Shown: piece by piece, positions 30,254 to 47,401 of the stretch
Layout: the number at the start of each line of letters is the position of its first letter
Numbering within the stretch: the stretch's first letter is position 1
IMG/VR virus record: IMGVR_UViG_3300023296_001674
From: a virus
Length of the DNA stretch: 64,000 nt
Reading direction: 5' to 3' (one strand)
The notes under the pieces: generated by a model
What the model was told of the DNA's origin: nothing
Seen by the model: the letters and a program-made list of their open reading frames with translations, nothing else
Database searches by the model: none
Position numbers and translations under genes: made by a program

Positions 30254-30282
30254 TAAAAACAACAGCCGGAGTCACTTAGGTG

Positions 30283-30329
30283 TTGACTCCGGCATTTTTC
30301 CTGCTAATATACTATCAGGGAGGGATGAG
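30283..30329 (+). repeat. E-element copy 11, plus orientation (its -35 lies in the upstream terminator stem)
   Basis: CCGGAGTCActtaggtgTTGACTCCGGcatttttcctgctAATATActaTCAGGGAGGGATGAG. Confidence 0.6.
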
Positions 30330-30444
30330 TAAAATTCGCCCCGAAAAAAACTTTCATTTTATTTCATTTAAGGGGTTGACTCTGATCGGGTTGGGTAGTA
30401 ATATCACTACATCAAAACAAACCAACAACCCAAGGAACAAAACC

Positions 30445-31029
30445 ATGGCAACCGATAAAAATGGCTTAACACTTTCAAACGCTTCTGATTCTGGTTATAA
30501 ATTTGTAACTACTTTGTTTGAAGGACCGCTGGCTGGAAAGTTCGTCGCCTTCGCGGATGTTAAAACCGCCGAATTGCAACGCCTGAACAAATCTCACGCG
30601 CACGGAATAAACGGTTTCTTTGGATTCAAAAACGTTGTTCCGTTGGGCGTTTTCGATGATGTGCGCGACGCCGCATACGTTGGACAAACATTCCACGCAG
30701 GGAACGCAGATGACCGCGACGACAACCTTGCCGAATTATACGCTGGCAATGAGTCAGTTATCCCTAAATCATTGACCGATTGGGATAATCCCGCCGATGT
30801 TACTTCAATGAAAAAAGCCGCAACCCGCGCAAAAACCCGACGCATGGGTAAAACATTCGATGCAAAAAAAGCCGAGACCGCAATCGATAAGTTTGCCAAC
30901 AATTTCAAATCATACAAAATCGGTAACATGGATGTCCGCGTAATCTTGGAACGCATGAAAGAACTGTTTGATAACGGAACAAGCTTAACCCTTTCCGCCG
31001 AAACCGTTTGCTCCGATTACCAGCGATAA
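30445..31029 (+). CDS. hypothetical protein (194 aa)
   Basis: Track ORF 30280..31029 trimmed (N-terminal extension would translate the promoter region); promoter TTGACT..TAATAT ~30368-30397. Confidence 0.55.
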   Translation: MATDKNGLTLSNASDSGYKFVTTLFEGPLAGKFVAFADVKTAELQRLNKSHAHGINGFFGFKNVVPLGVFDDVRDAAYVGQTFHAGNADDRDDNLAELYAGNESVIPKSLTDWDNPADVTSMKKAATRAKTRRMGKTFDAKKAETAIDKFANNFKSYKIGNMDVRVILERMKELFDNGTSLTLSAETVCSDYQR

Positions 31030-31672: not shown

Positions 31673-32593
31673 ATGGCAAAAGCAACCCGCACCAAAATCG
31701 ATCATGAGCAACAAATCACTAACGCTATTGTCGCCCACGTTGAAGGGTATATCGCCGCCGAGGCTACAGGCGAAGAGATCGCACGTTGGGAAAGCCCCTT
31801 CGGAAAATTCTTCCGTGAAGGCCATTTTTGCGCCGCAACCGATAACCAGTATAAAGGCTGGACTAACAATTTTTTCCTTACACTTATGGCGCACGCAAGC
31901 GGATTCAATTCCGATGCATGGGGAACATTCAAGCAATGGAAAAGCATGGGAACGGATGAAACACCCGTATCTGTTAAGCATGGTCAAAAAGGTTCCGCTT
32001 GGATTGCTTTTCCATATATCAACAAAGATAAAGTAACCGGCGACGACACCGTAACCGGATTCGGATATCGCGCCGTATTCAATGCCGATCAAATCGAAGG
32101 ATATACGCCCGAGGTTGTTGAACTACCAGAGTCGCAGGTTGTGCAACATGCCAAAGCTGAAACATTCTTGAAAAATCTGGACGTAACATTCCAGCATATC
32201 GGAAACCGCGCTTTCTATAGCCCTGCTAGTGATGCAATCAGCATGCCCCCAGAAGGCGCGTTTAAGGCGACTGAATACAGTACCGCAACCGAAGGCTACT
32301 ATGGCACCAAGTTTCATGAATACGCCCACGCAACCCTGCACGCTAGCCGGTGCAATCGCGAACAAGGCGCGGATAAAGCTTCATACGCTTTCGAAGAGTT
32401 GGTCGCCGAATTGACCTCGACTATCCTATGTTCGCGCTTTGGTATATCCGCACAACCACGCGAAGACCACGCTAAGTATATACATTCATGGTTGAAAGCA
32501 CTGAAAAGCGACAAGACCATGATTATGAAGGCAATGAAGAAAGCAAGCCAAGCAATCGCTTGGATGGATAAAAAGCAACCAACATCAAAATAA
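31673..32593 (+). CDS. ArdC-like protein (DUF1738-type ssDNA-binding N-domain + zincin HExxH metallopeptidase-like C-domain)
   Basis: ASGFNSDAWGTFKQWKSMG..KGSAWIAF ; FHEYAHATLH (HExxH); track ORF 31625 trimmed; promoter TTGACT..TATACT ~31615-31644. Confidence 0.5.
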   Translation: MAKATRTKIDHEQQITNAIVAHVEGYIAAEATGEEIARWESPFGKFFREGHFCAATDNQYKGWTNNFFLTLMAHASGFNSDAWGTFKQWKSMGTDETPVSVKHGQKGSAWIAFPYINKDKVTGDDTVTGFGYRAVFNADQIEGYTPEVVELPESQVVQHAKAETFLKNLDVTFQHIGNRAFYSPASDAISMPPEGAFKATEYSTATEGYYGTKFHEYAHATLHASRCNREQGADKASYAFEELVAELTSTILCSRFGISAQPREDHAKYIHSWLKALKSDKTMIMKAMKKASQAIAWMDKKQPTSK

Positions 32594-32654
32594 AAGGTTG
32601 ACAGTAAGGATATGATATCGTATTATATCCTTACTGAAACGAAAGGAACACACA

Positions 32655-32756
32655 ATGACACACGGTAACGGCAAGATCAGGCGATTCGCAGGCAATCTAG
32701 GGGCGCTAATGCTGGCAGCGCTGGCAGGCTACGCGACGCTGGTGGTCCTAGCATAA
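32655..32756 (+). CDS. small hydrophobic peptide (33 aa)
   Basis: Not in track; strong palindromic promoter 32589-32640; RBS gaaaggaacacaca-ATG; MTHGNGKIRRFAGNLGALMLAALAGYATLVVLA. Confidence 0.4.
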   Translation: MTHGNGKIRRFAGNLGALMLAALAGYATLVVLA

Positions 32757-32807
32757 CGCCAGAACCGAGTCAAGCACTTATTTCACGGTGTTGCACTTAT
32801 GACACAG

Positions 32808-32855
32808 TCAAGTCTTTTATTATAAAATAAAAATAAAAAAAGACTTGACATTCGA
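32808..32855. repeat. 13-bp perfect inverted repeat with AT-only loop
   Basis: GTCAAGTCTTTTTattataaaataaaaataAAAAAGACTTGAC. Confidence 0.55.
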
Positions 32856-32939
32856 AAAAAAGAGTGCTCGTGCAGTGTTTTGAAGTTTTTTATTTAATGG
32901 ATACCTTACCCTTAGCTCGAAATACGCCAAAATTTTTCA

Positions 32940-33075
32940 GGCTAAATCGGAACTCTGGCTATCGTGACACTTATCGTGACAAAATGTCGCGATACCATTA
33001 TAATGGGTCATTTATTCATCCTATCGTGACATTTGACCCATTATAATGGGTCAATACACCCCCCACCCCCTTTTC
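32940..33075. repeat. cluster of short repeats and palindromes at early-region/AT-island boundary
   Basis: TATCGTGACA x3 (one inverted as TGTCGCGATA); palindromic CCCATTATAATGGG x2 (second within 22-bp palindrome TTGACCCATTATAATGGGTCAA); then C6AC5. Confidence 0.55.
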
Positions 33076-33163
33076 TATGAAACACTTATTCATTCAATAT
33101 AAAAAAAATTCTGCGCCAAAATTTTAATAAATAATATTAGGTTTTTAACATAGGAACATTTAA

Positions 33164-33319
33164 CATGAAAACATTATCCGATAAACAACATGCTACCATT
33201 AAAGAGAACATGCGTGCTATTCCAAAAGCATCATATACAGACATTGATCGCACCGCAGTTCTTAAAGAAGAATATGCTGAATTTATAAAAAATATCAACG
33301 AAAGCGACAAACCAGAATA
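33164..33319 (+). CDS. small protein (~51 aa)
   Basis: Not in track; MKTLSDKQHATIKENMRAIPKASYTDIDRTAVLKEEYAEFIKNINESDKPE; coordinates approximate. Confidence 0.3.
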
Positions 33320-33323
33320 AACA

Positions 33324-33755
33324 ATGAGAGCATCCGACTTCATCGCTGAAACACTTATATCTGTTTCGCACGGAACCAATACCGATTTTGATCAATTAGA
33401 TGTGGCAAAAACATCCGATGGTGGAATTCACTTTGGTTCCAATCAACAAGCAGCGTTACGATCAACTGGAAAAAATTCGCGCATCATCGATACACAAATT
33501 GATGTTAGAAAACCAAAACGTTGCAAAGACGATGGATCAGGATGGAAAAACAAAATAAAATCCGCCAAACGTTCTGGATATGACAGTATTGTATATTTGA
33601 ACCGTTATGAAAATATGACCACTGAACGAGTAGAACAGTTATCACAATCCGGCAAACTAGATACTTTGGATTCATTATCCGATGCCGCATTCAAAAAATT
33701 AGTTCCTGAAGCACAAGACAGTTATATTGTGTTCGACAACGATCAAATAAAATAG
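33324..33755 (+). CDS. hypothetical protein (N-terminus MRASD.. shared with next gene)
   Basis: ORF track. Confidence 0.5.
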   Translation: MRASDFIAETLISVSHGTNTDFDQLDVAKTSDGGIHFGSNQQAALRSTGKNSRIIDTQIDVRKPKRCKDDGSGWKNKIKSAKRSGYDSIVYLNRYENMTTERVEQLSQSGKLDTLDSLSDAAFKKLVPEAQDSYIVFDNDQIK

Positions 33756-33765
33756 GACACTTATC

Positions 33766-34152
33766 ATGAGAGCATCCGAAATCACAGAAACAACAACGTC
33801 TTTAAAATGGGCAACCCGCAACCCATCACCAAAAGATTATGAAATAGTTATGATCGACATTAAAGCACTTATGGATAATACCAATCGCATACAAAAAATT
33901 TCATTATCTGCTGTAACCAAAGCAGACGATGAAAACATTATAGGTGATCGCGTTTCAAGAGCAAAACAATTTTGGCTAGATGGTGGCGAAATGCGACTAT
34001 CAATGGTTGGATACAGTGATTATTCCAAGATGGTAGACTTCACCGACGGTAGACACCGCCTAATAGCCGCGTATCAACTTGGTGAACGCCATGCACCCGT
34101 ATTGGCAGACAAGGACGGCATAGAAGAATTTAAAGCGCTGGTAGGGGCTTAA
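33766..34152 (+). CDS. ParB-like nuclease (ParB/Srx fold) domain protein
   Basis: DGRHRLIAAYQLG resembles ParB N-domain DGxHR motif. Confidence 0.45.
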   Translation: MRASEITETTTSLKWATRNPSPKDYEIVMIDIKALMDNTNRIQKISLSAVTKADDENIIGDRVSRAKQFWLDGGEMRLSMVGYSDYSKMVDFTDGRHRLIAAYQLGERHAPVLADKDGIEEFKALVGA

Positions 34153-34227
34153 AACCCATCACCCCCAAACTATATTGACACCGTAAAACCACAATGATAT
34201 ACTTATTCTTTAATAAAAGGAAATAAT

Positions 34228-34338
34228 ATGATAAAAGGCAATGACGACAATTTCAGTAGCGATACAGGCAATACCATCGAATGGGGTTTGATCGTTATTT
34301 TACTATTAGGATTTCTTATAATTCCCCTGTTCGGGTAA
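34228..34338 (+). CDS. small membrane peptide (36 aa)
   Basis: Not in track; RBS aaaagg; MIKGNDDNFSSDTGNTIEWGLIVILLLGFLIIPLFG. Confidence 0.3.
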   Translation: MIKGNDDNFSSDTGNTIEWGLIVILLLGFLIIPLFG

Positions 34339-34434
34339 TTAATCATTTGTTAGATTATACCAGTAACGACATATTTGGAATACTTATTGTTATTGTGTGT
34401 ATAGTCCTTATTATATTTGGCCCCATATATATTT

Positions 34435-34665
34435 TTATGTAGTACCCACAATATTTACATTATGCTGCGTGCTAGGAAAATTCAATAGATCATATTGTGT
34501 TATATTATGATTAGCAAATGACATATCATGTGGAAATTTTATTGTTGTATACATTATTGATCCATTAATATTTGCTGTTATATCATGATACCGTTCACGC
34601 GATGGTGATTTATCAATGTTTATTACTGTAAACATCAAAATATTGTTAGTATCGCAGCAGTGCAT
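34435..34665 (-). CDS. hypothetical protein (paralog of 34700..34924)
   Basis: ORF track; AT-rich island minus-strand operon; shared ..ITQ..LL....NV.I motif. Confidence 0.45.
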   Translation of the reverse strand: MHCCDTNNILMFTVINIDKSPSRERYHDITANINGSIMYTTIKFPHDMSFANHNITQYDLLNFPSTQHNVNIVGTT

Positions 34666-34699
34666 ATTAACAATACGGCTAATATATCATCATTAAACC

Positions 34700-34924
34700 T
34701 CACGATATAGTTACATTATTAACTGTGCCATAATACATCAATAATGATTGTTGTGTTATGCTATTATCATTGATAAATTCATTTAACGGATAAGCCAACG
34801 CTACTCGCATAGCCCTCATTTTACCGTCAACAAATGCTTTTTCCACAAAGTCATATTTAATTTCATATTTATGATGTAGTTTAGGTTTAGTTTTTGTTTT
34901 CGTAATATCTATTATGTTTATCAT
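34700..34924 (-). CDS. hypothetical protein
   Basis: ORF track. Confidence 0.45.
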   Translation of the reverse strand: MINIIDITKTKTKPKLHHKYEIKYDFVEKAFVDGKMRAMRVALAYPLNEFINDNSITQQSLLMYYGTVNNVTIS

Positions 34925-35109
34925 TTTAATTCACTTATTTCCACACGTTTTTTTGTACTGATTATTGACAGTAAATCACGTTGTGATAATGTCATATTAT
35001 GAACAATGGATACTACGCTATATTTCATAGTCACATCCATAATTATACCATCCTTCCAATATACAATATAATGCATACGATTGAAAACAATATCTGTTCC
35101 ATTTCTCAT
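34921..35109 (-). CDS. hypothetical protein
   Basis: ORF track; overlaps neighbour by 4 nt. Confidence 0.45.
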   Translation of the reverse strand: MRNGTDIVFNRMHYIVYWKDGIIMDVTMKYSVVSIVHNMTLSQRDLLSIISTKKRVEISELK

Positions 35110-35299
35110 TTATTGGTTGCCCCCAAACAGTATTGCATTATGGTTACATTATTTTTAGTATCGTATAACGGTAGGAGATCACATTCATAATATCATAATG
35201 CAAAAAGCAAAGAATACGTTGACTACCACCAATGATTCAGTATCCATTATACGACAGCCAATATTATAAAAATCATAAAAATCCAATCATCATCATCCA

Positions 35300-35509
35300 T
35301 TATTCAAATCCTTTTATTACGGTACAAGTCATTTTGTTACCTGGGTATCGTTCAGTATCCCACGATTCTTCTGGTTGGGAGAATGTATATTCACCGTGAT
35401 TAACGCAGTCATCATAAATGGATGACGTTGTCATTGTATAAGTGAGCGAAAATGTAAGTACTGCTACGCAAGCAAGCAAACATCATAGTAACTTTGTATC
35501 ATTATTCAT
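35300..35509 (-). pseudogene. frameshifted third copy of the TM + Cys-x3-G-x-Y/E-F small-protein family
   Basis: Minus strand: MNNDTKLL-stop, then other frame ..LLACVAVLTFSLTYTMTTSSIYDDCVNHGEYTFSQPEESW..C.V matching paralogs 35502..35708 and 35705..35899. Confidence 0.35.
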
Positions 35510-35708
35510 TTTCAATTACCTTACATCTAATTGTTTTACCGAAATATTGGTGTGATGAGTATGCTGTATCAAATGTTGAGAATTTGTATGTCCCGTTGGT
35601 ATTGCAATGGTTATATATGGTACCAATTGTGCTATAATAAGTGATACTCACCGTGGTAAGTCCTAATATTAATATTATCACACTTATAGCAATTGTATTA
35701 AAGATCAT
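35502..35708 (-). CDS. small membrane-anchored protein (family with conserved C-x3-G-x-Y-x-F ... C)
   Basis: ORF track; N-terminal TM then IYNHCNTNGTYKF..C. Confidence 0.5.
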   Translation of the reverse strand: MIFNTIAISVIILILGLTTVSITYYSTIGTIYNHCNTNGTYKFSTFDTAYSSHQYFGKTIRCKVIENE

Positions 35709-35899
35709 TTATCGATACTCCTTATTTGGCAATCCATTATTCTATCATCGAAAGGACGTGTGTCAATAGCATTACGTGAAATGAATTCATGATTGCCATA
35801 TGTTGCACAATTTTCAAACACAGCGGTCAATGCGACTGAATAGGAAACATATGATGTAATCAAAATTGTAACGATTGCTGGTAGCACCATATCTCTCAT
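35705..35899 (-). CDS. small membrane-anchored protein (paralog)
   Basis: ORF track; VFENCATYGNHEF..C. Confidence 0.5.
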   Translation of the reverse strand: MRDMVLPAIVTILITSYVSYSVALTAVFENCATYGNHEFISRNAIDTRPFDDRIMDCQIRSIDK

Positions 35900-36537
35900 T
35901 GTTTTTTCTCCTTTTCGAATTGTTTGACTTCATCAAGAAATTTTCTAATATCTTTATTTCCACCACCGAATATACCAAGCTCTATCATTTCTTGTCGTTT
36001 TCTAAGGTAATCAAAATCACAATTACCATCATATAATCCAGAACCGGTTTGCATAGACCAAAACCGATACATCATGGCTCTTGATGTGTAATGTGGTCCA
36101 TGGTGGTATGATTGTTTTTCAACATCCCAACTACAATCATCTATTAGTTTAAATGCTAACTGCACGTATGCGATAGCAGGGTCTGATAGCCAATCTCTTA
36201 CATTGGTATCGAAGTAACCGGGATCACGGTTCCATTCACGGTCAGCCATTTCGGTAGCCCTACGTATTTCTTTTAGGTAGTCGGGTGGTATGGCATATTT
36301 AAGTTGTGTTATCATATCGAGGTATGGTTTAGGGAGCGCTGTTTTACCATTTTGCAATTTGTCATTATTCGACCAAGCTAAGTGATATATGACTACATCA
36401 TCGGTTTTTTGGGCACCATCGATCAAAGTAGGAAAGACGAGATTAATATCTTTGGTATTAAACAGCATCTTTGATATCGATATCATTTTCAAAATATTTA
36501 ACTGAGGACATAACGACAACTTGATTATATGATTCAC
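35896..36537 (-). CDS. hypothetical protein (213 aa; start uncertain, GTG in track)
   Basis: ORF track; overlaps 36458..36643 so true start may be ATG at 36486 or 36468. Confidence 0.45.
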   Translation of the reverse strand: MNHIIKLSLCPQLNILKMISISKMLFNTKDINLVFPTLIDGAQKTDDVVIYHLAWSNNDKLQNGKTALPKPYLDMITQLKYAIPPDYLKEIRRATEMADREWNRDPGYFDTNVRDWLSDPAIAYVQLAFKLIDDCSWDVEKQSYHHGPHYTSRAMMYRFWSMQTGSGLYDGNCDFDYLRKRQEMIELGIFGGGNKDIRKFLDEVKQFEKEKKQ

Positions 36538-36643
36538 GTTTCATTATTAATTCGTCGCGATTATGGCTGATATAAGTGCCACTTAGGTATGATCTGCTAT
36601 TTGTTTCTCTAAAGTACACTTTTATTTTATCACCGTTTTTCAT
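36458..36643 (-). CDS. small beta-rich protein (possible Sm/SH3-like), paralog of 36643..36870
   Basis: GDKIKVYF..SYLSGTYISHNRDELIMKRE vs GTRIKVFI..TTIGEFYSYSEDSLIIHRD. Confidence 0.45.
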   Translation of the reverse strand: MKNGDKIKVYFRETNSRSYLSGTYISHNRDELIMKRESYNQVVVMSSVKYFENDIDIKDAV

Positions 36644-36870
36644 TATATTTCCTCTATGAGTAATATTTTATCTAGTGGGATGAATGCTCGAAGGGGTTGA
36701 TCATTTACACCAACGATATTGTTTATATCACGATGTATGATAAGACTATCTTCAGAATATGAATAAAATTCACCTATTGTAGTTGATTTATCGGTACTGT
36801 AACGGACATCGATAAACACTTTTATTCTAGTGCCTACCATTAATTGTCTTAATGTATGAGTGTCGATCAT
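36643..36870 (-). CDS. small beta-rich protein (first gene of minus-strand operon)
   Basis: ORF track. Confidence 0.45.
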   Translation of the reverse strand: MIDTHTLRQLMVGTRIKVFIDVRYSTDKSTTIGEFYSYSEDSLIIHRDINNIVGVNDQPLRAFIPLDKILLIEEI

Positions 36871-37327
36871 TTATATCTCCTATGTTTTTTATAGTATATA
36901 GGATAATTGATCATTGTCAAGGGAATAGTGGATTACGGTTTTGGGCGGACTGATTTTACATTGTGGGGAAATTATGGTTCACTTATCGGGTTTATAAGTG
37001 AAAAGGTTTCCACAGTAGAAGCATGCGGTTACGTTTCTTTTATGAAGGGGGATTGTATAGTATACGATGGGGTGATTATGCGGGGGATTTGGTCCTGCGC
37101 ACTTAACATTTGGTGTATTTGTGTAGATTATTTTGGGATTATGTGTCATAAGTGTATTTATTATGGGGTATTATGGGGTATAAGCGCTCAAAAAATTTGC
37201 TTAAAGCCTACGGCTTTTTATGATTTCGTTGTTTAATTGTTGAAGGGCGGCGGCGTAAAACACCGATTGTTACTGTTGATCTATTGTGTCATTACTAAAT
37301 AACATCGTATTTAACAGGAGAAGTAGT

Positions 37328-37543
37328 ATGAATAACAAATTAGGATTGATGGTATTTTATATACATGTTGGAACGTTACCAATGCATAGATCGATGTCAT
37401 ATATAGAGTCGATAAAAAAACAAATAATGGATGGTAAGAAAGAAACGCAGTTAACAAGGAATTATGATACCATGTTTATTCCGTCGTCTGATCCAGATAA
37501 TCGAGATACTGTAATAGAGATGTTTCCATACGAGAATGTATAA
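37328..37543 (+). CDS. hypothetical protein
   Basis: Track ORF 37286..37543 trimmed to ATG after aggagaag. Confidence 0.5.
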   Translation: MNNKLGLMVFYIHVGTLPMHRSMSYIESIKKQIMDGKKETQLTRNYDTMFIPSSDPDNRDTVIEMFPYENV

Positions 37544-37595
37544 ATATATATATAATAATAAATAACATTAGACTTTACTTATCGGAGATATAACA

Positions 37596-38357
37596 ATGTC
37601 ACAGAATGCAACAAACATGCGAAAATTAATGGAAAGCGTTAATCCAGTGCAACATATGGAAATGAGCGATATTCCTGTTGATAACATGGGCGCAATTGAT
37701 AACAATGGCGACATGGACGCACAAGTAGGCGGCGACATGGCTCCTGATATGGGAATGGACGCTGCTCCTGAAGCACCAGCACCAGATATGGGCATGGAAA
37801 TGCCTGATATGGGAATGGATATGGCAGCACCTGAAGGCGCAAGCAGTGACATCATTGATGCACTTGACGGCGAATTCAAGCGTTTGACAACTGAATTCTT
37901 GCAAACCGGTGGTGAACTGGATGAAGCGGGACTTGGTGATGTTCGTGAAAAACTAGGTAAGCATATGACAAGTATTCTTGATGTATTGCATTCTGGTTGG
38001 ATGGATAACATGATGGATCAAGGCGCTAACGAAGAAGCACCATCTTTTGGTGGTGATTCTGACGGCGACGCACCTGATTTCAGTGGTGGCGATAGTGATG
38101 ATTCCGATGATTCTTCTTCAGATGACGACTCTGGTGATTCCGATGATAAAGCACCTAACTTTGGTGGTGATGATTCTGATGATTCCGGCGACGATGAAGA
38201 AAAAGATTCTGATGACTCTGATGATGATAAATCTGATGACGACGATGGTGACAAAGAAGATAAAGAAGTTGACGAAAGCGAAAATCCTCTTAAGAATGCA
38301 CACATCAATGAATCAACAAAAATGCGCAATTTACAAAATATCATACTAAACGGTTAA
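37596..38357 (+). CDS. hyper-acidic low-complexity protein (DMGM and D/S-rich GGDSDD repeats)
   Basis: ORF track; PDMGMDAAPEAPAPDMGMEMPDMGMD..; GGDSDGDAPDFSGGDSDDSDDSSSDDDSGDSDD.. Confidence 0.6.
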   Translation: MSQNATNMRKLMESVNPVQHMEMSDIPVDNMGAIDNNGDMDAQVGGDMAPDMGMDAAPEAPAPDMGMEMPDMGMDMAAPEGASSDIIDALDGEFKRLTTEFLQTGGELDEAGLGDVREKLGKHMTSILDVLHSGWMDNMMDQGANEEAPSFGGDSDGDAPDFSGGDSDDSDDSSSDDDSGDSDDKAPNFGGDDSDDSGDDEEKDSDDSDDDKSDDDDGDKEDKEVDESENPLKNAHINESTKMRNLQNIILNG

Positions 38358-38431
38358 TACACTATGATTAAAGAATTATAGAAACCCTACCATTAATTTG
38401 GTGGGGTTTTTTTTAATTACTAAATAAATCC

Positions 38432-38740
38432 ATGCTTTCAAAGAATGATATCAAACATCACATAGCGTTAAATGAAATGGGAATGTATTCTACATTAGAA
38501 CATGTAGCTCCTGGAGCACTTAGTTTTATTGATTCTGTGATAATGATGATGAACTCACAGGGTTGGTATGACTTAGCGTGGTGTCTATCAGAAGATGTTA
38601 AGCGTGGGGTTTATCCACCGCGCAAAGATTCGATACATCGCACCCTAACTTATAAGTATCTCAAAATCAATAAACCTTTATCTAATATGGATAAAATGAT
38701 ATTGACTTTAAAGAATCTATATAATACAATATCACGATAA
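38432..38740 (+). CDS. hypothetical protein
   Basis: ORF track. Confidence 0.5.
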   Translation: MLSKNDIKHHIALNEMGMYSTLEHVAPGALSFIDSVIMMMNSQGWYDLAWCLSEDVKRGVYPPRKDSIHRTLTYKYLKINKPLSNMDKMILTLKNLYNTISR

Positions 38741-38753
38741 TAAAGGAGTTAAT

Positions 38754-39134
38754 ATGTTTGAAGAAGATAAACCAACTGCATGTATAATTGGTAGATTTAG
38801 TCCATGGAATGATGGTCATACTAAACTTATCCAAACCACAATAAAATATTGTGATCCTACATATAAGAATAAAAAATCAGAAGCAGAACAATTGCTTGTT
38901 TTGGTTCGTGATACTGGACAGGATATAAGTGGCATAGAAAACAAAATATCCAGTTTAATTGATAATGATTTTAAAGTAGTTAAGATACCCAATATAACAG
39001 ATATGTTTTTTGGTAAACAATTAACTGTTGATATGCATAGAATAGACATTGGTGATGAAGAACCGGTGAATTTACAGAAAACGTCTGCTGAAGAGGGTGC
39101 CTTTCAAAAGGATTTTTTTAAAAACAGAGGTTAA
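38754..39134 (+). CDS. hypothetical protein
   Basis: ORF track; RBS aaggag. Confidence 0.55.
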   Translation: MFEEDKPTACIIGRFSPWNDGHTKLIQTTIKYCDPTYKNKKSEAEQLLVLVRDTGQDISGIENKISSLIDNDFKVVKIPNITDMFFGKQLTVDMHRIDIGDEEPVNLQKTSAEEGAFQKDFFKNRG

Positions 39135-39152
39135 CAACAAAAGAGATATATT

Positions 39153-39536
39153 ATGAAAAAATTATTATTAGCGGCAACACTTATGGTATTGCCATTTACT
39201 GCGATGGCAGAAGAACAAACAGTTGGAATGTCTGCTACATTTATGTGTAGAGTGGCATCAACAGTAGACGCGCATTTAACTAGATTGGGTTATACCAAAG
39301 GTGTTGAACTTGATGGATTAAATATGGGAACCATTATTATATGGTACGGAACAGAAAACGGCATCAAATCTTGGATGCTTACTGCGAATACACCCAATGG
39401 TTTAACTTGCAAATTAGATAATGGTTATGTTGATCTCAAAAACCCAACCGAAACTACTCCTGAATCGTCAAAACCAAAACTGGATGAAGAATCATTAAAG
39501 AAAATGATGGACAACGCGAAAAAAGACTCACTTTAA
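39153..39536 (+). CDS. secreted protein
   Basis: Signal peptide MKKLLLAATLMVLPFTAMA. Confidence 0.55.
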   Translation: MKKLLLAATLMVLPFTAMAEEQTVGMSATFMCRVASTVDAHLTRLGYTKGVELDGLNMGTIIIWYGTENGIKSWMLTANTPNGLTCKLDNGYVDLKNPTETTPESSKPKLDEESLKKMMDNAKKDSL

Positions 39537-40207
39537 CATTTGATTATATAAATATAATTTGGAAAATTGACCGACTTCAATCTCCTTCTTACAGTTTCTT
39601 CGCCGAGTTTTAATATTTTTGCCGACTCGATGACTGATGAATATATAACGTCGTCTATTTTAACAGATTTTTTGCGATGATTATTTTCTGGATGTTTTCC
39701 ATATAACGGATGTTTATCACCGATTTTTCCATACATGCCATTTTTTTCACCAGAATTTTTTTCACTTATTTTTTGTTTAGTTTCATCTGTTCTTGGCACA
39801 CCGAATAATGGATTATTTTTTCCAGTTCTGCCCCACATTGGATTATTTTTTCCTTTCATTTTCTCTGCAAATTTAGGTCTTTTAACACCTGTTCTGTTGG
39901 GTGGTCTTCTATCAACGCAAATATTAGTAAGTATGCCATTTTTGTCATAACCATTTCGACCAAGTTTTTTAATCCACGTTTTTTCTAAATCATATGCATC
40001 CTTTTCTGGCATATTTTTTTCTATGAATTTAACACCAGGTTCTAATCCTTCTTTTCGTATCGCATTTATTTTATTCCATTTTTGTATATTTTCTGTTGTG
40101 TGTATAGTTTCCGTCAGATGTCTCTTCCATCGGTCTTTTGATCCTTTTCCTATATAAAATTCTATATTATCATGTCTTGGGTCTAGCAATGCGTATACGT
40201 AATACAT
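39533..40207 (-). CDS. GIY-YIG homing endonuclease with NUMOD3-type repeats
   Basis: MYYVYALLDPR..FYIGKGSKDRWKRH; repeated GKNNPMWG/KNNPLFG/KHPLYG motifs. Confidence 0.75.
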   Translation of the reverse strand: MYYVYALLDPRHDNIEFYIGKGSKDRWKRHLTETIHTTENIQKWNKINAIRKEGLEPGVKFIEKNMPEKDAYDLEKTWIKKLGRNGYDKNGILTNICVDRRPPNRTGVKRPKFAEKMKGKNNPMWGRTGKNNPLFGVPRTDETKQKISEKNSGEKNGMYGKIGDKHPLYGKHPENNHRKKSVKIDDVIYSSVIESAKILKLGEETVRRRLKSVNFPNYIYIIKC

Positions 40208-40288
40208 GTATATCCTTATTCGTTATATGTTTTATCCCATCATATATTTATAATAAATATTAATAATGTATAAAATAAGGAATATATC

Positions 40289-40642
40289 ATGACTGAAAAA
40301 ATTATAAACGAGCATCCATTTAAAAAATATTGGCGTCCAGCAGCGGCTACGGTATATTTAATAATATGCATATTCGATTTTATAATAATGCCATCAATAA
40401 TAGAAATTTCTAACACTAAAATAACAAATCAGCAAGCAATAACGCTGGCGTTAAAATTTAATGATTCAGCATCACAAATGCAATCATTGAGTGTGTTTAT
40501 GGAAAAGCGAACATGGAACCCATTAACCCTTCTGGGTAGTGGGTTTTTTCACCTTAGTTTTGGTGCGTTGTTAACAGGTTCGGCTATCACACGTGGCTTA
40601 GAGAAGAAGCAGCACGCTAGCAATGGCAAAGTTATGAAATAA
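40289..40642 (+). CDS. membrane protein
   Basis: ORF track; TM segments. Confidence 0.5.
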   Translation: MTEKIINEHPFKKYWRPAAATVYLIICIFDFIIMPSIIEISNTKITNQQAITLALKFNDSASQMQSLSVFMEKRTWNPLTLLGSGFFHLSFGALLTGSAITRGLEKKQHASNGKVMK

Positions 40643-41120
40643 TAAGTTCTACGCTTACAAAACCTTCTGATTTTGTAGGTCGTTCGTATGTTTCTATCAT
40701 TTGGTTAACTATCTTGTCGCTAACACTTTTACCAGTTTCGTTCTGGCGCTTTTCAAGGCGGCGGAACAATTCGTCATAATCCAATTCGAATGCAACTGCC
40801 TTATGAACATACTTAGGGGTTTGCAACATCTTCTTACGACGAATTTTAATCGAAAGGTTAGTTTGATCCCAAATGATGTGTTTTTTTTTGTTGACAGCCT
40901 CGCGCAGAGCGATGTTGAACTTAGTCTTAGTTTTGAACGGCAACTTGTAGAATGCTTCAGAGTAGGTGATACCTTGCTCCGCAGCATACTTTTCAATGAA
41001 GACGTCGGTGCTAATAACGGTCCAATCGTTTGAATCGTTTTCCATGAACTGCTTAATCCAAGTTGATTTACCGGAACCTGGTGGTCCGATTAACATCATA
41101 ATTGTTGGTTTGTGTAACAT
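40632..41120 (-). CDS. P-loop polynucleotide-kinase-like protein (T4 Pnk kinase-domain-like; no phosphatase domain)
   Basis: IMMLIGPPGSGKSTWIKQF; VISTDVF; IIWDQTNLS; LEKRQNETG pattern parallels T4 Pnk N-domain. Confidence 0.55.
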   Translation of the reverse strand: MLHKPTIMMLIGPPGSGKSTWIKQFMENDSNDWTVISTDVFIEKYAAEQGITYSEAFYKLPFKTKTKFNIALREAVNKKKHIIWDQTNLSIKIRRKKMLQTPKYVHKAVAFELDYDELFRRLEKRQNETGKSVSDKIVNQMIETYERPTKSEGFVSVELIIS

Positions 41121-41131
41121 AATATTATTCC

Positions 41132-41536
41132 TTAGTGTTTATTTCTTTTCTTTCCAAGATTAATAACGTCAATACCTTCGTTATGTAAATCATATTGTTC
41201 GTGTGCTGTTGCGGTTCCATGTATGCCGCGCTCTTCTTTGTCGCCATAATGGATAGCACGCACTTCGTCAGCAAATCTTTCTCCTACATCTTCGCAGTTT
41301 TTTTCAACCCACTCTAATGCTTGTTGTTCATTATCTGATGACTTAGCATAATCTGATTTAGGGCGCGAACCTTTTTTCGAAATATTAGGAGCCATCAATG
41401 CTTTGCTGGTGTGTGTATCACCGCATACAGGGCATTCAATCGCCTTGGTTCCAAGCAGTTCATCGCATTTTGCGGAACTTACGAACCAAGACTCGAACAC
41501 GTGTTCATTTTTGCACTTAATATTATATTTTATCAT
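41132..41536 (-). CDS. zinc-ribbon protein (DUF1178-like)
   Basis: MIKYNIKCKNEHVFESWFVSS..CDELLGTKAIECPVCGDTHTSKALMAP. Confidence 0.45.
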   Translation of the reverse strand: MIKYNIKCKNEHVFESWFVSSAKCDELLGTKAIECPVCGDTHTSKALMAPNISKKGSRPKSDYAKSSDNEQQALEWVEKNCEDVGERFADEVRAIHYGDKEERGIHGTATAHEQYDLHNEGIDVINLGKKRNKH

Positions 41537-41556
41537 GTTGTTATTATATATGGTTT

Positions 41557-41844
41557 GTGCAATATGTCAAGATGTTTATTATTGACTTATGGACGGTGTT
41601 TTTATATAATGATATTATGAGATATTTACATGTAGAAGCACATAGTGGTCGTCCATATTGGATTGTGATTGAAGAAAAAAACAAAGATAATCATTGGGGT
41701 CAAATGTTGAATATAGGAATGAGTGTTTGGTTGTGTGAAAATATATCAACATCGGGCGATGATTGGTGTTTTTTAGACACTAACAATGCAGTTAGTTTTT
41801 TAAATCTTGATGATGCGATGGCATTCATTTTGCGATGGGCATAA
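41557..41844 (+). CDS. hypothetical protein with C-terminal ..DDAMAFILRWA motif
   Basis: ORF track; TTGACT-N17-TATAAT ~41505-41533. Confidence 0.5.
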   Translation: MQYVKMFIIDLWTVFLYNDIMRYLHVEAHSGRPYWIVIEEKNKDNHWGQMLNIGMSVWLCENISTSGDDWCFLDTNNAVSFLNLDDAMAFILRWA

Positions 41845-42098
41845 ATATAGATATGATAACTGTTAAATTATGCGATCACGGAATAAATGTTACCATGCAT
41901 CAAGATGCCGAATTTATTGAAACTGAAAAGGGTATATGGTTAGAGGATAATAACATCGATTATCGCATTTGTTCTATTGTTAATATCTTGGCTATGAATA
42001 TAGACGGTAAGACAATTGATGCGATATCTATTGAAAATATGTCATTTTTTAGCGAAGAAGACTTTATGGCATTTAAATTGCGATGGAGCAATCAATAA
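41835..42098 (+). CDS. hypothetical protein with C-terminal ..EEDFMAFKLRWSNQ motif (paralog)
   Basis: ORF track. Confidence 0.5.
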   Translation: MGINIDMITVKLCDHGINVTMHQDAEFIETEKGIWLEDNNIDYRICSIVNILAMNIDGKTIDAISIENMSFFSEEDFMAFKLRWSNQ

Positions 42099-42580
42099 GA
42101 AGCAAGTTTGGGTGCAAGGAAATCCATATGTGACATAGGGGTATTAATGACAACTGAAAAAGGTAACATCGAAAAATCACCAGCCCAATCTGTACCATTA
42201 TATAACACTTGGTTTAAGAATCTATCATATTTCAATCTAATACTTGAGACTGTTATTACGCATTGTATGCCATCGTCGTTGATATAATATCGCAATCGAT
42301 TGTTATGCAAATCGACAAATCCACCATAATGCATAGTGCCATCTATTAAAATGGTCGCATTACGATAATCATAGCAGTCAGTTCCACCACGTCTTGCTTT
42401 ATACACTTTTTCTTGTTTCCAATTCAATGAATAAGTATTATCTTGATATGTATGTATGCCATCTATTTTTAAGGCGTTACCGTGGAGAACTTTTTGTTTA
42501 AATGAGTTTTCTGTTTGAACGGTTAATGCTTCACCATGAAGTAAATAGCATCCAGTTTCTGATTGTTTTATTGTATTCAT
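42092..42580 (-). CDS. hypothetical protein
   Basis: ORF track. Confidence 0.45.
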   Translation of the reverse strand: MNTIKQSETGCYLLHGEALTVQTENSFKQKVLHGNALKIDGIHTYQDNTYSLNWKQEKVYKARRGGTDCYDYRNATILIDGTMHYGGFVDLHNNRLRYYINDDGIQCVITVSSIRLKYDRFLNQVLYNGTDWAGDFSMLPFSVVINTPMSHMDFLAPKLASY

Positions 42581-42655
42581 AAGTATTCCTATACTAAATA
42601 TTAAAACAGGATATAATAAATCACAGTAAAAGTCAATAAAACAGGAAAGTATATT

Positions 42656-43045
42656 ATGAGTTTTAATAAAATCATCGACGATATTAAGATTAAGTATTTA
42701 ACGATGGACCCAAGCGTTGATCCAAAGAATAAAGAATCGCGCCGGAACTGGATATTATTCATGGCGAACAAGACACAACGGTTTCCTGTACGTCAGGTAT
42801 ATGATAGATTGATACCGTCTGTAACAAAGATGACAGTCAATACAGATATGAAATACCTTGAAGATCAAGGACTTATCAGGCGCGAGAAAGAAAGTGATGG
42901 AACATCGCATATCGTTCCATTGTTTGATGATTCAGGTGAAGCACCTGAACCAAAGCACGTCATATATAAAAGATGGGCGAAAAATGTAATATTACCACTT
43001 ATTGCCTTGACATTACTTGTCGTATTTGTTATTATCAGTGGTTGA
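42656..43045 (+). CDS. winged-helix-like protein with C-terminal transmembrane anchor
   Basis: VRQVYDRL..VTKMTVNTDMKYLEDQGLIRRE; C-terminal ILPLIALTLLVVFVIISG. Confidence 0.4.
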   Translation: MSFNKIIDDIKIKYLTMDPSVDPKNKESRRNWILFMANKTQRFPVRQVYDRLIPSVTKMTVNTDMKYLEDQGLIRREKESDGTSHIVPLFDDSGEAPEPKHVIYKRWAKNVILPLIALTLLVVFVIISG

Positions 43046-43065
43046 TATTAACGAGGAAAAAGAAT

Positions 43066-43803: not shown

Positions 43804-43886
43804 ATTGTTTTTTATTTGACATATGTGATATATATATGTTACTATCATGTTATAAAATAACAATAATCTTTAATATGGAGTAACAA

Positions 43887-44288
43887 ATGAATAAAAATCT
43901 GCTTACAACTTTGATAAATATTAATATAGTAAAGCCCGGAACCGAAATAGCAATGTTGCGTATCGGAAACTCGATGGTTGGATCAGGAGCAACCTCTTTG
44001 AAAATGAGGGTGTTTAGCACAGAAGATAAGGACGGTAATCAACAACAAATAGAAGTGAATGCAAATCATCTCGTAGAAATATATAAGTGTGAAATAATCG
44101 ATGAAGAAATATCTATATATGCACATAGCGTTGTAGATGGCGAAAAATTCATATTAAATGACGAAGATATTGTATTGATTGACAGCATGTTACCAGAAAA
44201 ATTAGCTGCGGTTTACGGATACACACCAGACGGAATCAAAAAGATACAAGGCAAAAAGCGGGGGCGTAAACCAAAAATAAGAGAGTAA
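43887..44288 (+). CDS. hypothetical protein with basic AT-hook-like C-terminus (KKRGRKPKIRE)
   Basis: ORF track; promoter TTGACA ~43815. Confidence 0.5.
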   Translation: MNKNLLTTLININIVKPGTEIAMLRIGNSMVGSGATSLKMRVFSTEDKDGNQQQIEVNANHLVEIYKCEIIDEEISIYAHSVVDGEKFILNDEDIVLIDSMLPEKLAAVYGYTPDGIKKIQGKKRGRKPKIRE

Positions 44289-44296
44289 CATAACAT

Positions 44297-44590: not shown

Positions 44591-44669
44591 CAAAAAATCC
44601 ACCCTGCGAGGGTGGATTTTTTGTCTCTAATAATAAATAATAGTAGGTTTTTATTTAGAGGAATAAAAA

Positions 44670-46024: not shown

Positions 46025-46069
46025 TATACTATAATAAATAATACTATATTAACGTGAAGGATCAATACT

Positions 46070-47391: not shown

Positions 47392-47401
47392 AAATAATGC
47401 A

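Follow-up and report, generated by a model that had tools for sequence, protein, structure and literature searches.

A leader shared by genes of the locus analysed here resembles the capsid-targeting sequence of phage T4, MKTYQEFIAE (PMC8442874), a leader of 10 residues in which positions 8 and 10 determine processing, and which heads otherwise diverse injected anti-restriction proteins (PMC9026906, PMC3012670). The domains catalogued for proteins predicted to be co-injected with DNA include ArdC-N, MPTase, ART and ParB-like (PMC5512222). Here, we describe a locus where such domains, found or suspected, a short shared leader and an operon of small proteins lie side by side in a window of 64,000 nucleotides, by which we mean the whole stretch of DNA analysed, from virus record IMGVR_UViG_3300023296_001674.

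The window comes from an uncultivated phage of huge size: among its genes are tail-fibre-like genes, GIY-YIG homing endonucleases, a helicase and a ligase, and proteins identical to its own are found on contigs of up to 570,750 bp. We read the region from about 31.7 to 37.6 kb (Table 1) as three adjoining units within an early part of this phage that is dense in promoters, and not as one island, a composite reading that takes in an early operon, an envelope role and a leader acting as a capsid-type tag, and that we regard, as a whole, as moderately probable. Two relatives were compared, L002, whose proteins are about 70% identical to those of the window, and L009, a 2.7-kb fragment, a sample that covers the range of slot contents poorly.

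Table 1. Features of the region, by position in the window
Feature	Position	Strand	Basis or remark
ArdC-like gene (ArdC-N and zincin MPTase-PolyVal domains)	31673..32593	+	Pfam, PHROG
Promoter-like site TTGACA-17-TATTAT overlapping a hairpin with 16-nt arms, then hydrophobic ORF	32598..32756	+	
Hydrophobic ORF, 33 codons	32655-32756	+	read by eye
Conserved non-coding control region	32807..33054	+	repeats, promoter, palindromes, then C-rich block
p51, 51-aa gene, first of plus-strand operon	33165..33320	+	ORF and independent gene caller
143-aa ADP-ribosyltransferase, polyvalent-protein type, leader MRASDFIAE	33324..33755	+	Pfam
128-aa ParB-motif protein, leader MRASE-ITE, FTDGRHRLIAAYQLG motif	33766..34152	+	homologs in relatives
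Promoter-like site TTGACA-17-TATACT and two tiny ORFs	34175..34442	+	converges on end of minus-strand operon
Possible membrane ORF, 36 aa	34228-34338	+	read by eye; Kyte-Doolittle
Possible membrane ORF, 31 aa, TTG start	34347-34442	+	read by eye; Kyte-Doolittle
Paralog set 3: m76 (34435-34665), m74 (34700-34924), m62 (34921-35109)	34435..35109	-	Smith-Waterman z 4.0-7.1
Two tiny hydrophobic ORFs: 20 aa (35185-35247), 17 aa (35247-35300)	35185..35300	-	status uncertain
Paralog set 2: m59 (35300-35479), m68 (35502-35708), m64 (35705-35899)	35300..35899	-	Smith-Waterman z 3.6-13.5
m190, largest protein of the operon, 190 aa from ATG at 36468	35896..36468	-	
Paralog set 1: m61 (36458-36643), m75 (36643-36870)	36458..36870	-	Smith-Waterman z 6.3
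Operon promoter TTGACA-16-TATACT	36893..36920	-	11/12 consensus matches
GT-rich divergent spacer	36921..37285	+	G+T 65.2%, window maximum
71-aa gene, within variable slot	37328..37543	+	gene caller
253-aa highly acidic, low-complexity protein, conserved right flank of slot	37596..38357	+	

The first unit (~31.7-34.15 kb, plus strand) would be a conserved counter-defence module, in which a gene for an ArdC-N and metallopeptidase protein is followed by a conserved, palindrome-bearing control region and then by an operon whose products are a 51-aa protein, an ART-PolyVal ADP-ribosyltransferase and a DGRHR-motif protein. The ArdC-like gene (third-position GC 0.48) matches PF18818 (E 6e-39), PF08401 (E 2e-10) and the anti-restriction family PHROG 7245 (E 2e-61), and its L002 homolog is 72% identical; it forms the conserved left anchor and closes the GC-richer left domain. 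The promoter-like stretch behind it, with a GC of 0.59, has an equivalent arrangement in L002, where TTGACT and a hairpin precede a 40-aa hydrophobic ORF. The control region contains a hairpin with 17-nt arms (32807-32849), three copies of TATCGTGACA with one imperfect inverted copy, a promoter GTGACA-17-TATAAT (32976-33004) and, at 32995 and 33038 and nowhere else in the window, the 16-nt palindrome CCATTATAATGGGTCA. It is collinear with L002 11140-11395, both palindromes and CCCCCACCCCCTTTT included, and the second palindrome shows changes in its outer arms on both sides that preserve the symmetry; in L009 the palindrome core lies directly upstream of the ParB-motif gene. The repeat cluster at 32.8-33.05 kb that the first-pass annotation took for the left edge of an island is indeed present, as a conserved regulatory region and not as an insertion scar.

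Within the plus-strand operon, the 143-aa protein matches PF18760 (ART-PolyVal; E 7.7e-8, 33.6 bits against a Pfam cut-off of 31.2), a family search with p51 gave no match, and neither Pfam nor PDB searches gave one for the 128-aa protein. The latter is 70-72% identical to homologs in L009/P0123 and in L002, where the homolog forms the C-terminal half of a larger protein of 241 aa; its gene, which is conserved, borders the variable slot on the left. The protein may be called ParB/Srx-like only at the level of its motif: its AlphaFold2 model is unusable (pLDDT 40.6), and the fold initially assigned to it finds support in neither sequence nor structure. The ART and DGRHR-motif genes are probably counter-defence genes, and the earlier suggestion of anti-defence candidates fits the plus-strand genes, with an ART-PolyVal match above the Pfam cut-off adjoining ArdC.

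The second unit (34.15-37.6 kb) would be a hyperplastic slot with a conserved gene on either side, where a host-type sigma-70 promoter drives a minus-strand operon, presumably transcribed early by host RNA polymerase, and where three families of mini-proteins (2, 3 and 3 copies) appear to have been amplified locally around a 190-aa protein. The nine minus-strand ORFs first described are confirmed between 36870 and 34435; apart from two short gaps, neighbours abut or share 1-11 nt, and GGAG-type ribosome-binding sites precede most of them. The operon promoter, 22 nt upstream of the m75 start with its GGAG site, is of a type present at 22 other sites; the window holds 23 near-consensus sigma-70 promoters against 2.6 expected. 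Searches of Pfam, PHROG and PADLOC with the minus-strand proteins gave no match at a meaningful E-value.

Paralogy within the operon was assessed by Smith-Waterman z-scores against 2000 shuffles, which all three of the sets originally proposed exceeded, the third having three members and not the two first counted. Set 1 comprises small soluble proteins with the common motif G-x-[RK]-IKV-[FY] ... G-x-[FY]-x-S ... LI; a 65-aa homolog of m75 (z 9.6) occurs in L009 at a different position, and similarity to Sm/Hfq proteins or PDB entries was looked for and not found, which leaves the Sm/SH3-like label without sequence or structural backing. The members of set 2 have an N-terminal hydrophobic helix (Kyte-Doolittle maxima 1.5-2.4) followed by a domain of ~40 aa with C-x3-G-x-[YHF]-x-[FL] ... 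C-x-[IV], two cysteines and one glycine being invariant; all three are connected through a single homolog in a relative (E 2e-9 to 1.5e-5), and L009 carries a set 2 homolog just downstream of its 190-aa homolog. The frameshift noted in one member of this trio is compatible with the sequence of m59, which has no in-frame ATG but an ATGATG one frame off, beside a T-run at 35478-35480; it could use a TTG start or be frameshifted at its 5' end. The 17-aa and 20-aa ORFs are chained to it by TAATG stop/start overlaps. Set 3 shares ITQ..LL...NV.I near the C-terminus in all members and is absent from L002 and the L009 fragment; m62 gives sub-threshold matches only, to T4 gp30.7 and PHROG 1582. Homology searches place m190, the one broadly conserved member of the operon, in a widespread uncharacterised jumbo-phage family, with 335 homolog clusters mostly on jumbo-phage contigs; a GTG start giving 213 aa is unlikely, and a structural search with its confident model returned no match. 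That m190 might be an orphan or cargo peculiar to this genome is excluded by the breadth of this family.

We regard the operon as an early accessory cassette for which superinfection exclusion is a candidate role. The two-cysteine trio of set 2 would have an inner-membrane anchor and a periplasmic domain held by disulfide bonds, and would act at the envelope, most likely by blocking superinfecting phages; such a membrane role is a reasonable guess.

The third unit would be the GT-rich divergent spacer, which is probably non-coding. It has a GC skew of 0.39, 2.3 tandem copies of TATTATGGGG (37159-37181) and a terminator-like hairpin (37203-37217), an RNA fold z of only -2.2 and no Rfam match. 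Its 3' ~180 nt align loosely with L002 15514-15720, where a matching ORF is absent. Beyond it, the 71-aa gene has neither an L002 homolog nor a Pfam match, and the acidic protein, without a match in Pfam or PHROG, has a homolog at L002 17872-18537.

The window and L002 share the order ArdC, small membrane ORF, conserved spacer, MRAS genes, slot, acidic protein and 102-aa protein, with identities of 72% for the ParB-motif homolog, 66% for the acidic protein and 62% for the 102-aa protein. Within the slot, L002 has one 37-aa minus-strand gene, behind a promoter matching the consensus at 12/12 positions in the equivalent place, a 593-aa MRASEF protein and an SPRY mini-protein; in L009 a minus-strand two-cysteine gene comes immediately after the ParB-motif gene, and the 190-aa homolog next. 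The stretch is therefore not syntenic and conserved in all relatives, since slot content differs in both of those compared, and the accessory character first proposed for the minus-strand genes is borne out. Judged by these gene orders, the slot between the conserved ParB-motif and acidic-protein genes is variable.

The first-pass annotation had proposed that the whole of 33.1-37.5 kb is one compositionally foreign, horizontally acquired accessory cassette with its own operon, in line with the strand switch, the internal paralogy, minus-strand genes absent or different in relatives and a fall in GC at ~32.8 kb. Composition largely refutes this, and we consider it unlikely. The fall is a one-sided step without a right boundary, GC being 0.404 over 1-33099, 0.341 over 33100-37560 and 0.339 over 37561-49000, so that the GT-rich spacer seen as the right edge exists but marks no compositional border. 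The step is ancestral, because L002 has one (0.447 to 0.371) at the equivalent place, where its ArdC gene ends. At third codon positions the GC of the operon genes (0.22-0.31) is that of all genes at 33-55 kb and matches the tail-fibre-like genes (0.22-0.25), and for operon RSCU the correlation is 0.80 (right-hand genes), 0.77 (49-61 kb set) and 0.45 (left domain). The codon-usage distance from the operon to the right-hand genes is 0.388 and the 95th percentile of the native null 0.389, which puts the operon at the edge of the native range and not in its middle. Against a single foreign cassette stand also the separate plus-strand module at 33.1-34.15 kb, kept in relatives, the conserved control region at its supposed left boundary, an operon promoter of the phage's own common type, and the lack of any tRNA, of an integrase in family scans and of an integrase-like gene at the borders. 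The stretch is instead a slot that changes fast and whose composition is normal for its own genome. That several of its mini-ORFs are chance ORFs in AT-rich DNA is highly improbable: the ORFs are short, m59 lacks an ATG, and the two plus-strand ORFs (19-residue Kyte-Doolittle maxima 2.5 and 3.3 for 36 and 31 aa) and the 17- and 20-codon ORFs were missed by the gene caller, but the same caller independently found eight of the nine operon ORFs, skipping only m59, starts and stops are coupled with ribosome-binding sites present, m64, m75 and m190 have homologs in L009, and for paralogs to retain their motifs at 24-31% identity, selection must act on the protein. That the membrane mini-proteins form a holin, antiholin or spanin-like cassette, for lysis or its timing and not for exclusion or host takeover, is very unlikely. 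T4 holin T and antiholin RI are likewise small, with an N-terminal hydrophobic helix and an outward domain with paired cysteines, but the set 2 proteins, at 59-68 aa, are shorter than either, the operon promoter is of early sigma-70 type, neither an endolysin nor a lipoprotein spanin partner lies in the operon or its surroundings, and the presence of three diverged copies is easier to reconcile with interaction partners that diversify than with a clock for lysis.

The leader of the two adjacent plus-strand genes, whose shared MRAS(D/E) start was recognised at the outset and extends to 17 of 19 nucleotides, appears to be a portable element, MRAS[DE]F[IV]xE, heading other, unrelated proteins in relatives. 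It reads MRASDFITE in P0123/L009 and, in L002, MRATEF on a 207-aa, MRASDF on the 241-aa and MRASEFVSE on the 593-aa protein. At least five unrelated proteins begin with it, and beyond it the ART and ParB-motif proteins are unrelated (z 0.0, shuffle test). That it has no targeting role, and is either a remnant of tandem duplication or a common cassette for translation initiation, is a tenable possibility towards which we do not lean. Such a cassette, GGACACTTATC upstream plus the first codons, could be a homology anchor for gene-body swaps or serve efficient early translation, in keeping with the near-identical starts, with a similar GG(A/G)ACACTT upstream of three leader genes (7 occurrences of the motif in the window, where 1.4 would be expected) and with the location of the genes in an early-promoter region. 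The peptide is retained, however, on unrelated bodies while its codons differ (AGA GCA TCC in the window, CGT GCG AGT in L002), and this conservation at the protein level points to selection on the leader peptide itself. Packaged proteins are normally made late, whereas the MRAS genes lie behind a sigma-70-like promoter in a region rich in early-type promoters; ArdC has no leader, positions 7-9 do not fit [IVL]-x-E in two of the six leaders, and no head genes or prohead protease occur within the window. We nevertheless favour a targeting and processing tag of the T4 capsid-targeting type, by analogy, in which case the ART and DGRHR proteins would travel in the virion and be injected along with the DNA, possibly as counter-defence effectors. 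Set against the proven capsid-targeting sequence of T4, MKTYQEFIAE, the leader MRASDFIAE is alike over about 5 residues.

The stretch between 33.1 and 37.5 kb had been flagged in the first-pass annotation as an AT-rich island of horizontally acquired DNA, and composition speaks against both parts of that reading. GC content is 0.404 across positions 1-33099, 0.341 across the alleged island (33100-37560) and 0.339 across the DNA to its right (37561-49000), with a drop near 32.8 kb and no recovery at 37.5 kb. The lowest value within the operon of nine minus-strand ORFs is 0.285, and equally AT-rich stretches occur further right, for example at 40.0-40.4, 45.2-45.6 and 47-48.6 kb. At third codon positions, the nine minus-strand genes have a GC content of 0.22-0.31, matching that of three large tail-fibre-like genes (0.22-0.25), while genes at 37.6-48.5 kb span 0.19-0.44; the left 33 kb, composed of small plus-strand genes, stands at about 0.38 (mean 0.38, n = 11 genes), with 0.48 for the ArdC gene. 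The RSCU of the operon correlates at 0.80 with the right-hand genes and at 0.77 with a 49-61 kb set, both of them native, and at 0.45 with the left domain. Its codon-usage distance from the right-hand genes (0.388) lies at the 95th percentile (0.389) of native subsets of equal size; the codon usage of the operon is inside the native range, at its edge.

The window holds two codon-usage regimes, 1-32800 and 32801-64000, the left 33 kb correlating in codon usage at only 0.55-0.57 with everything rightward and the right-hand sets at 0.96 among themselves. The switch at the end of the ArdC gene is also found in a relative, L002 (1-10927 versus 10928-20927), where GC content is 0.447 before the end of this gene and 0.371 after it, and since L002 has the same GC step, the step is an old trait of the lineage. 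The compositional oddity is therefore the GC-richer left block and not the flagged region; if any part is unusual, it is the left 33 kb, which is the part unlike the tail-fibre-like genes. Composition and codon usage do not deviate from both flanks, as they do in a genomic island, and the hallmarks of insertion (a flanking tRNA, att repeats, an integrase or a transposase) were not found, with no integrase-like match among the scanned proteins; the flanking repeats are kept in L002, which is without the cassette. A second minus-strand mini-operon, encoding a DUF1178 zinc-ribbon protein and an AAA_33 kinase-like protein behind a perfect 12/12 promoter, shows that strand switches are not peculiar to the flagged region. 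In this genome, low GC and a strand switch are thus no mark of foreign DNA, a tempting misreading that is corrected here, and the true compositional boundary is the ancestral step after ArdC.

As proteins 100% identical to those of the window are found on contigs of up to 570,750 bp, the source is a huge uncultivated phage. A near-identity DNA search with 33000-37600 gave no match among 50,697 deposited phage genomes, and the window proteins are at most 51% identical to those of cultured phages. Besides tail-fibre-like proteins, the window encodes a superfamily-1 helicase, a DNA ligase, a methyltransferase and a Nol-like carbamoyltransferase, and no tRNA was found in its 64 kb. The low-GC domain also contains two GIY-YIG homing endonucleases, which have NUMOD3 and I-TevI-type DNA-binding modules, and a 126-aa protein of the window carries the sequence GRFSPWNDGH, by eye like the HxGH motif of cytidylyltransferase-like nucleotidyltransferases, with no Pfam match at E<=0.01.

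The two relatives, L002 and L009, were found via homologs of the ArdC and ParB-motif proteins, and the comparison spans 21 kb of L002 and the whole of L009, a 2.7-kb fragment. L002 is collinear with the window, its shared proteins being about 70% identical (see the table).

Positions of the features discussed and their counterparts in L002
Feature	Position in window	Strand	Counterpart in L002
Perfect promoters (examples)	4254, 8497, 46490	+	
Perfect promoter of second minus-strand mini-operon	41543-41570	-	
Gene with L002 homolog	30280-31029		68% identity
ArdC gene	31673-32593		70% identity
Non-coding stretch after ArdC (570 nt), with small hydrophobic ORF	32594-33164		10928-11558, collinear; hydrophobic ORF and conserved non-coding region
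51-aa gene (p51)	33165-33320		
ART gene	33324-33755	+	
ParB-motif gene (128 aa)	33766-34152	+	MRA(S/T)(D/E)F-starting genes, ParB-motif homolog included, 72% identity
Tiny hydrophobic ORFs, 36 and 31 codons, uncalled	34228-34442	+	
Tiny hydrophobic ORFs, 17 and 20 codons, uncalled	35185-35300	-	
Operon of nine ORFs	36870 down to 34435	-	
Operon promoter	36920-36893	-	
109/102-aa ORF, rejected as gene	36907-37236	+	none
GT-rich spacer	36921-37285		15514-15720, loosely conserved
Acidic protein (253 aa)	37596-38357		17872-18537, 66% identity
102-aa gene			62% identity
126-aa protein	38754-39134	+	
GIY-YIG homing endonuclease	39533-40207	-	
GIY-YIG homing endonuclease	45299-46024	+	
Second minus-strand mini-operon	40632-41536	-	
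Tail-fibre-like proteins	48.6-54.9 kb		

Homologs of the nine minus-strand genes are all missing from the 21 kb of L002, where the equivalent place holds a perfect 12/12 minus-strand promoter ahead of a single 37-aa hydrophobic gene; beyond it come a GT-rich, hairpin-bearing spacer, a 593-aa protein whose sequence begins MRASEFVSE, and a SPRY mini-protein. In L009, the ParB-motif gene (71% identity, leader MRASDFITE) is followed after 22 nt by a minus-strand gene for a two-cysteine protein, which matches three operon proteins named by their length in amino acids, m64 (E 2e-9), m68 (3e-6) and m59 (1.5e-5). A homolog of the 190-aa operon protein, m190, adjoins it (40% identity, E 9e-45), and a homolog of m75 lies on the opposite side of the ParB-motif gene. 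The contents of L002 and L009 therefore define 34.15-37.6 kb, between the ParB-motif gene and the acidic-protein gene, as a variable slot whose anchors and minus-strand promoter are conserved. Presence/absence polymorphism among relatives is confined to this interval, so that the idea of an accessory cassette survives for 34.15-37.6 kb, all nine genes being absent from L002, and fails for the rest of the flagged region. The 190-aa gene and a two-cysteine gene, common to some relatives, form the core of the slot, and the two-, three- and three-fold paralog sets described below are expansions seen in this genome. Small, mostly family-less genes, syntenic anchors and varying content are all found here, as in hyperplastic early regions, and the finding is a real but ordinary feature, a hyperplastic slot of probable early genes in a large phage. 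With its conserved anchors and promoter, the slot offers a way of collecting accessory, probably early genes from other huge phages of this kinship.

Between ArdC and its MRAS genes (those with the start that the ART and ParB-motif genes share in the window), L002 encodes two receiver-domain (Response_reg) proteins and a Sigma70_r4 protein (11559-14006), in whose place the window contains just p51 and ART; the phage response-regulator-like genes of L002 are in a second variable slot. The acidic protein past the first slot consists largely of D/E/S/G/M low-complexity runs (PDMGMD repeats, DDSDDS tracts) and has no family match. Highly acidic low-complexity proteins are sometimes DNA mimics.

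All nine minus-strand ORFs that had been described are present, and an independent gene caller, applied to another assembly of identical sequence (0 mismatches), called eight of them. The first gene has a TTGACA-16-TATACT promoter (11/12 matches) 22 nt upstream; ribosome-binding sites of the GGAG type stand before m75, m61, m64 and m68, and stop/start overlaps of 1-11 nt join m75/m61, m61/m190, m190/m64, m64/m68 and m62/m74. Paralogy was assessed by Smith-Waterman scores against 2000 shuffles, which support all three proposed sets: m75/m61 (z 6.3); the two-cysteine proteins m64/m68 (3.6), m64/m59 (8.1) and m68/m59 (13.5); and m62/m74 (4.0), m62/m76 (7.1) and m74/m76 (7.1). Given pairwise z values of 4.0-7.1, the third set has three members rather than the two originally listed. 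A plus-strand ORF of 109 or 102 aa was rejected as a gene, having no ATG, a composition explained by the GT bias and no L002 counterpart, and crossing a hairpin.

By hydropathy, each two-cysteine protein has a single membrane helix at its N-terminus. The C-terminal domain, about 40 aa long, carries a conserved pair of cysteines, in an invariant C...G...C behind the hydrophobic helix, and the three copies have diverged to 24-30% identity. One of them, m59, lacks an in-frame ATG, and an ATGATG lies one frame off beside a T-run at 35478-35480, making the frameshift suggested for it reasonable; TAATG overlaps, which join m59 to the two tiny minus-strand hydrophobic ORFs, hint nevertheless that the frame is still translated. 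The proposal that m75 and m61 are Sm/SH3-like found no support, a three-sequence profile aligned with E. coli Hfq in hhalign giving a probability of 0.1, and the pair has no Pfam match. PDB sequence and profile searches returned nothing meaningful for this set or for the two-cysteine set, and PADLOC had no match among ten scanned proteins.

The remaining core gene belongs to a widespread family. For m190, also read as 213 aa, the gene caller chose an ATG giving 190 aa, in agreement with the conserved N-terminus of the family. A word-indexed search of 5.8 billion proteins returned the self-match alone, and its apparent orphan status was overturned by full HMMER against 1.84 billion representatives, which gave 335 homolog clusters at E<=1e-3 and 151 at E<=1e-10. 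The family alignment found 16 loci in IMG/VR, on contigs of 13-499 kb with a GC content of 0.29-0.70, 13 of them on contigs of at least 66 kb and eight on contigs of at least 198 kb; m190 is a member of a widespread jumbo-phage family. The family is absent from deposited phage genomes, as tblastn with both the 213-aa and 190-aa versions gave nothing meaningful among 50,697 phage records, and an IMG/VR scan for close relatives of the 213-aa protein gave none. Pfam and PHROG gave no meaningful match for any member, a hunt for fusions among long homologs using Pfam produced one AAA_14 below cut-off, one Glyco_transf_7C and no pattern, and the neighbourhoods of distant homologs show neither a conserved partner nor an adjacent two-cysteine mini-protein. 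PDB sequence and profile searches gave nothing meaningful, and the confident structural model has a fold unmatched in the structure libraries searched, making the family a reasonable target for structural and functional work.

To the left, the repeat cluster at 32.8-33.05 kb is real, as the first-pass annotation had it, and is part of a conserved control region. The non-coding stretch after ArdC has, in order, a promoter-overlapping hairpin, a small hydrophobic ORF, a second hairpin with TTGAC, palindromes and a CCCCCACCCCCTTTT block. The palindrome core, CCATTAYARTGG, occurs in two copies 43 nt apart, the first palindrome overlapping the -10 element of a GTGACA-17-TATAAT promoter and the second having outer arms that differ between phages on both sides with symmetry kept; in L009 the same core (1400-1433) is directly upstream of the ParB-motif gene. 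This conservation marks the region as the likely control region of the MRAS operon and not as an insertion scar, and the region could be an operator pair, an RNA or DNA hairpin element or, among other things, an origin or a signal tied to injection. CCATTATAATGG was rejected as a general phage promoter, being confined to one spacer. On the right, the reported GT-rich spacer is confirmed, its G+T content of 65.2% being the maximum in the window. It contains repeated GGGG(T)AT motifs, a tandem TATTATGGGG x2.3 and a terminator-like hairpin, and in L002 it stands upstream of a different gene. Its RNA fold (z -2.2) is not compelling, and Rfam gave nothing near threshold across 32.4-38.6 kb.

The control region leads into the MRAS genes. 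The ART protein matches Pfam PF18760, ART-PolyVal (33.6 bits against a cut-off of 31.2, E 7.7e-8, profile positions 7-131 of 140), with H16, Y91 and D137 as candidate catalytic residues by eye; a PDB search gave nothing meaningful and IMG/VR no close relatives. ArdC-N and MPTase-PolyVal domains are found, by Pfam and PHROG, in the gene just left of the region, and all three are signature domains of polyvalent proteins, for which delivery along with the invading DNA is predicted (PMC5512222), ArdC-N being typical of conjugative elements rather than phages (PMC5512222, PMC9024508). The 128-aa protein has an FTDGRHRL motif, invariant in three homologs, and its assignment to the ParB/Srx fold comes down to this motif, as there is no Pfam match at E<=0.1 and no PDB match with either the single sequence or a three-sequence profile. 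The DdrB-ParB Pfam model was unmatched, PHROG 21912 reached only E 0.024, an AlphaFold2 model from a two-sequence alignment was unusable (pLDDT 40.6), and neither IMG/VR nor a JGI metagenome scan with the ParB-motif alignment returned close relatives.

What the two proteins share is their start, their bodies being unrelated past the first residues (z 0.0). The leader MRA[ST][DE]F is found on six proteins with five different bodies in three phages, a short N-terminal peptide on otherwise unrelated proteins as in T4, and is kept between phages despite different codons; [IV]-x-E ends it in four of the six (IAE, ITE, ITE, VSE) and is missing there in two. The leader of the window ART is MRASDFIAE. 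The T4 capsid-targeting sequence is MKTYQEFIAE (PMC8442874), a 10-residue peptide that is the sole element common to diverse injected anti-restriction proteins and whose removal by the head protease is set by positions 8 and 10 (PMC9026906, PMC3012670), and P1 DarB likewise has an N-terminal capsid signal (PMC9024508). From the likeness to the T4 sequence, the four [IV]-x-E ends and the spread over unrelated bodies, we propose that the leader may be a packaging and processing tag. Against the proposal, the MRAS genes follow a sigma-70-like promoter in a part of the genome that looks early, ArdC has no leader, the cleavage motif is missing in two leaders, and the head genes are outside the window. 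We regard it as possible, though improbable, that a portable tag, MRAS[DE]F[IV]xE, loads counter-defence enzymes into the capsid for co-injection and that the adjoining slot is a nursery of mini-proteins around a jumbo-phage protein. Under the tag proposal, a lineage of huge phages would carry a tandem, rapidly exchanged array of enzymatic proteins, with a tag of 9-10 residues like MKTYQEFIAE and a cargo of ART-PolyVal, the DGRHR protein and at least three other bodies, so splitting the polyvalent-protein repertoire into separately tagged genes; in the nursery, membrane and soluble mini-proteins would be duplicated and diversified around the protein of unmatched fold.

Transcription bears on the slot as well. 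In the window, 23 near-consensus TTGACA-16/18-TATAAT sites (at least 11/12) occur on both strands against 2.6 expected from shuffles, about a ninefold enrichment; they range over 0.3-52 kb (354-52143), mostly upstream of gene clusters and in matching orientation, and several are perfect. Over at least 47 kb, the phage seems to depend strongly on host sigma-70, and as the minus operon uses the enriched promoter type, host RNA polymerase probably transcribes it early, within the phage's own programme. The architecture of the two-cysteine proteins points to a disulfide-bonded domain located in the periplasm of a Gram-negative host, and the three diverged copies suggest diversification against varying partners. 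Our best guess, a doubtful one, is that they act at the envelope, most simply in the exclusion of superinfecting phages, although no homology to a known exclusion protein was found, PHROG, Pfam and PADLOC giving no match better than E 0.01. Lysis timing is a less likely role, given the early-type promoter and the absence of an endolysin or spanin partner.

Were the tag to be confirmed, the protein-delivery principle of T4 and P1 would extend to huge phages and offer a starting point for predicting injected effectors from sequence alone. A candidate capsid-targeting tag on an ADP-ribosyltransferase of a huge phage is directly testable, and together with a jumbo-phage family of unmatched fold and a conserved control region it is what the analysis adds.

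The closest likeness for the slot is to the hyperplastic regions of the T4 superfamily, in which small early genes cluster between core genes that are conserved. Common to both are densely packed small ORFs for which homologs are few or lacking, strong promoters of the host, early type, content that varies between related phages while the flanks stay syntenic, and local gene duplication; unlike those regions, the slot lies on the minority strand of a huge, uncultivated phage without a close relative in 50,697 deposited genomes, and its 190-aa member is widely conserved in jumbo phages. T4 Imm, Sp and their kindred are small membrane proteins of superinfection exclusion that act early in the membrane or periplasm. 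The two-cysteine trio resembles them as small proteins predicted to be early and to act in the same place, and differs in having no PHROG or Pfam family similarity and in comprising three diverged paralogs with a conserved cysteine pair. The MRAS genes recall the T-even internal proteins (IPI, IPII, IPIII), which are likewise adjacent, rapidly exchanged, of counter-defence flavour and joined by a leader of about 9-10 residues as their sole common feature, here [DE]FIAE with an I-x-E of the T4 prohead-protease type. The cargo here is enzymatic (ART-PolyVal, DGRHR), whereas that of T-even phages is small and basic; packaging and cleavage here are putative, the genes lie amid early-type promoters, the window encodes no T4-type head protease, and two of the six leaders lack I/V-x-E. 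Although the domains here are separate small genes and not parts of one giant polypeptide, they share with polyvalent proteins and the P1 Dar system a repertoire of ArdC-N, zincin MPTase, ART-PolyVal and possibly ParB-like domains, together with predicted early counter-defence by proteins delivered with the DNA (PMC5512222, PMC9024508).
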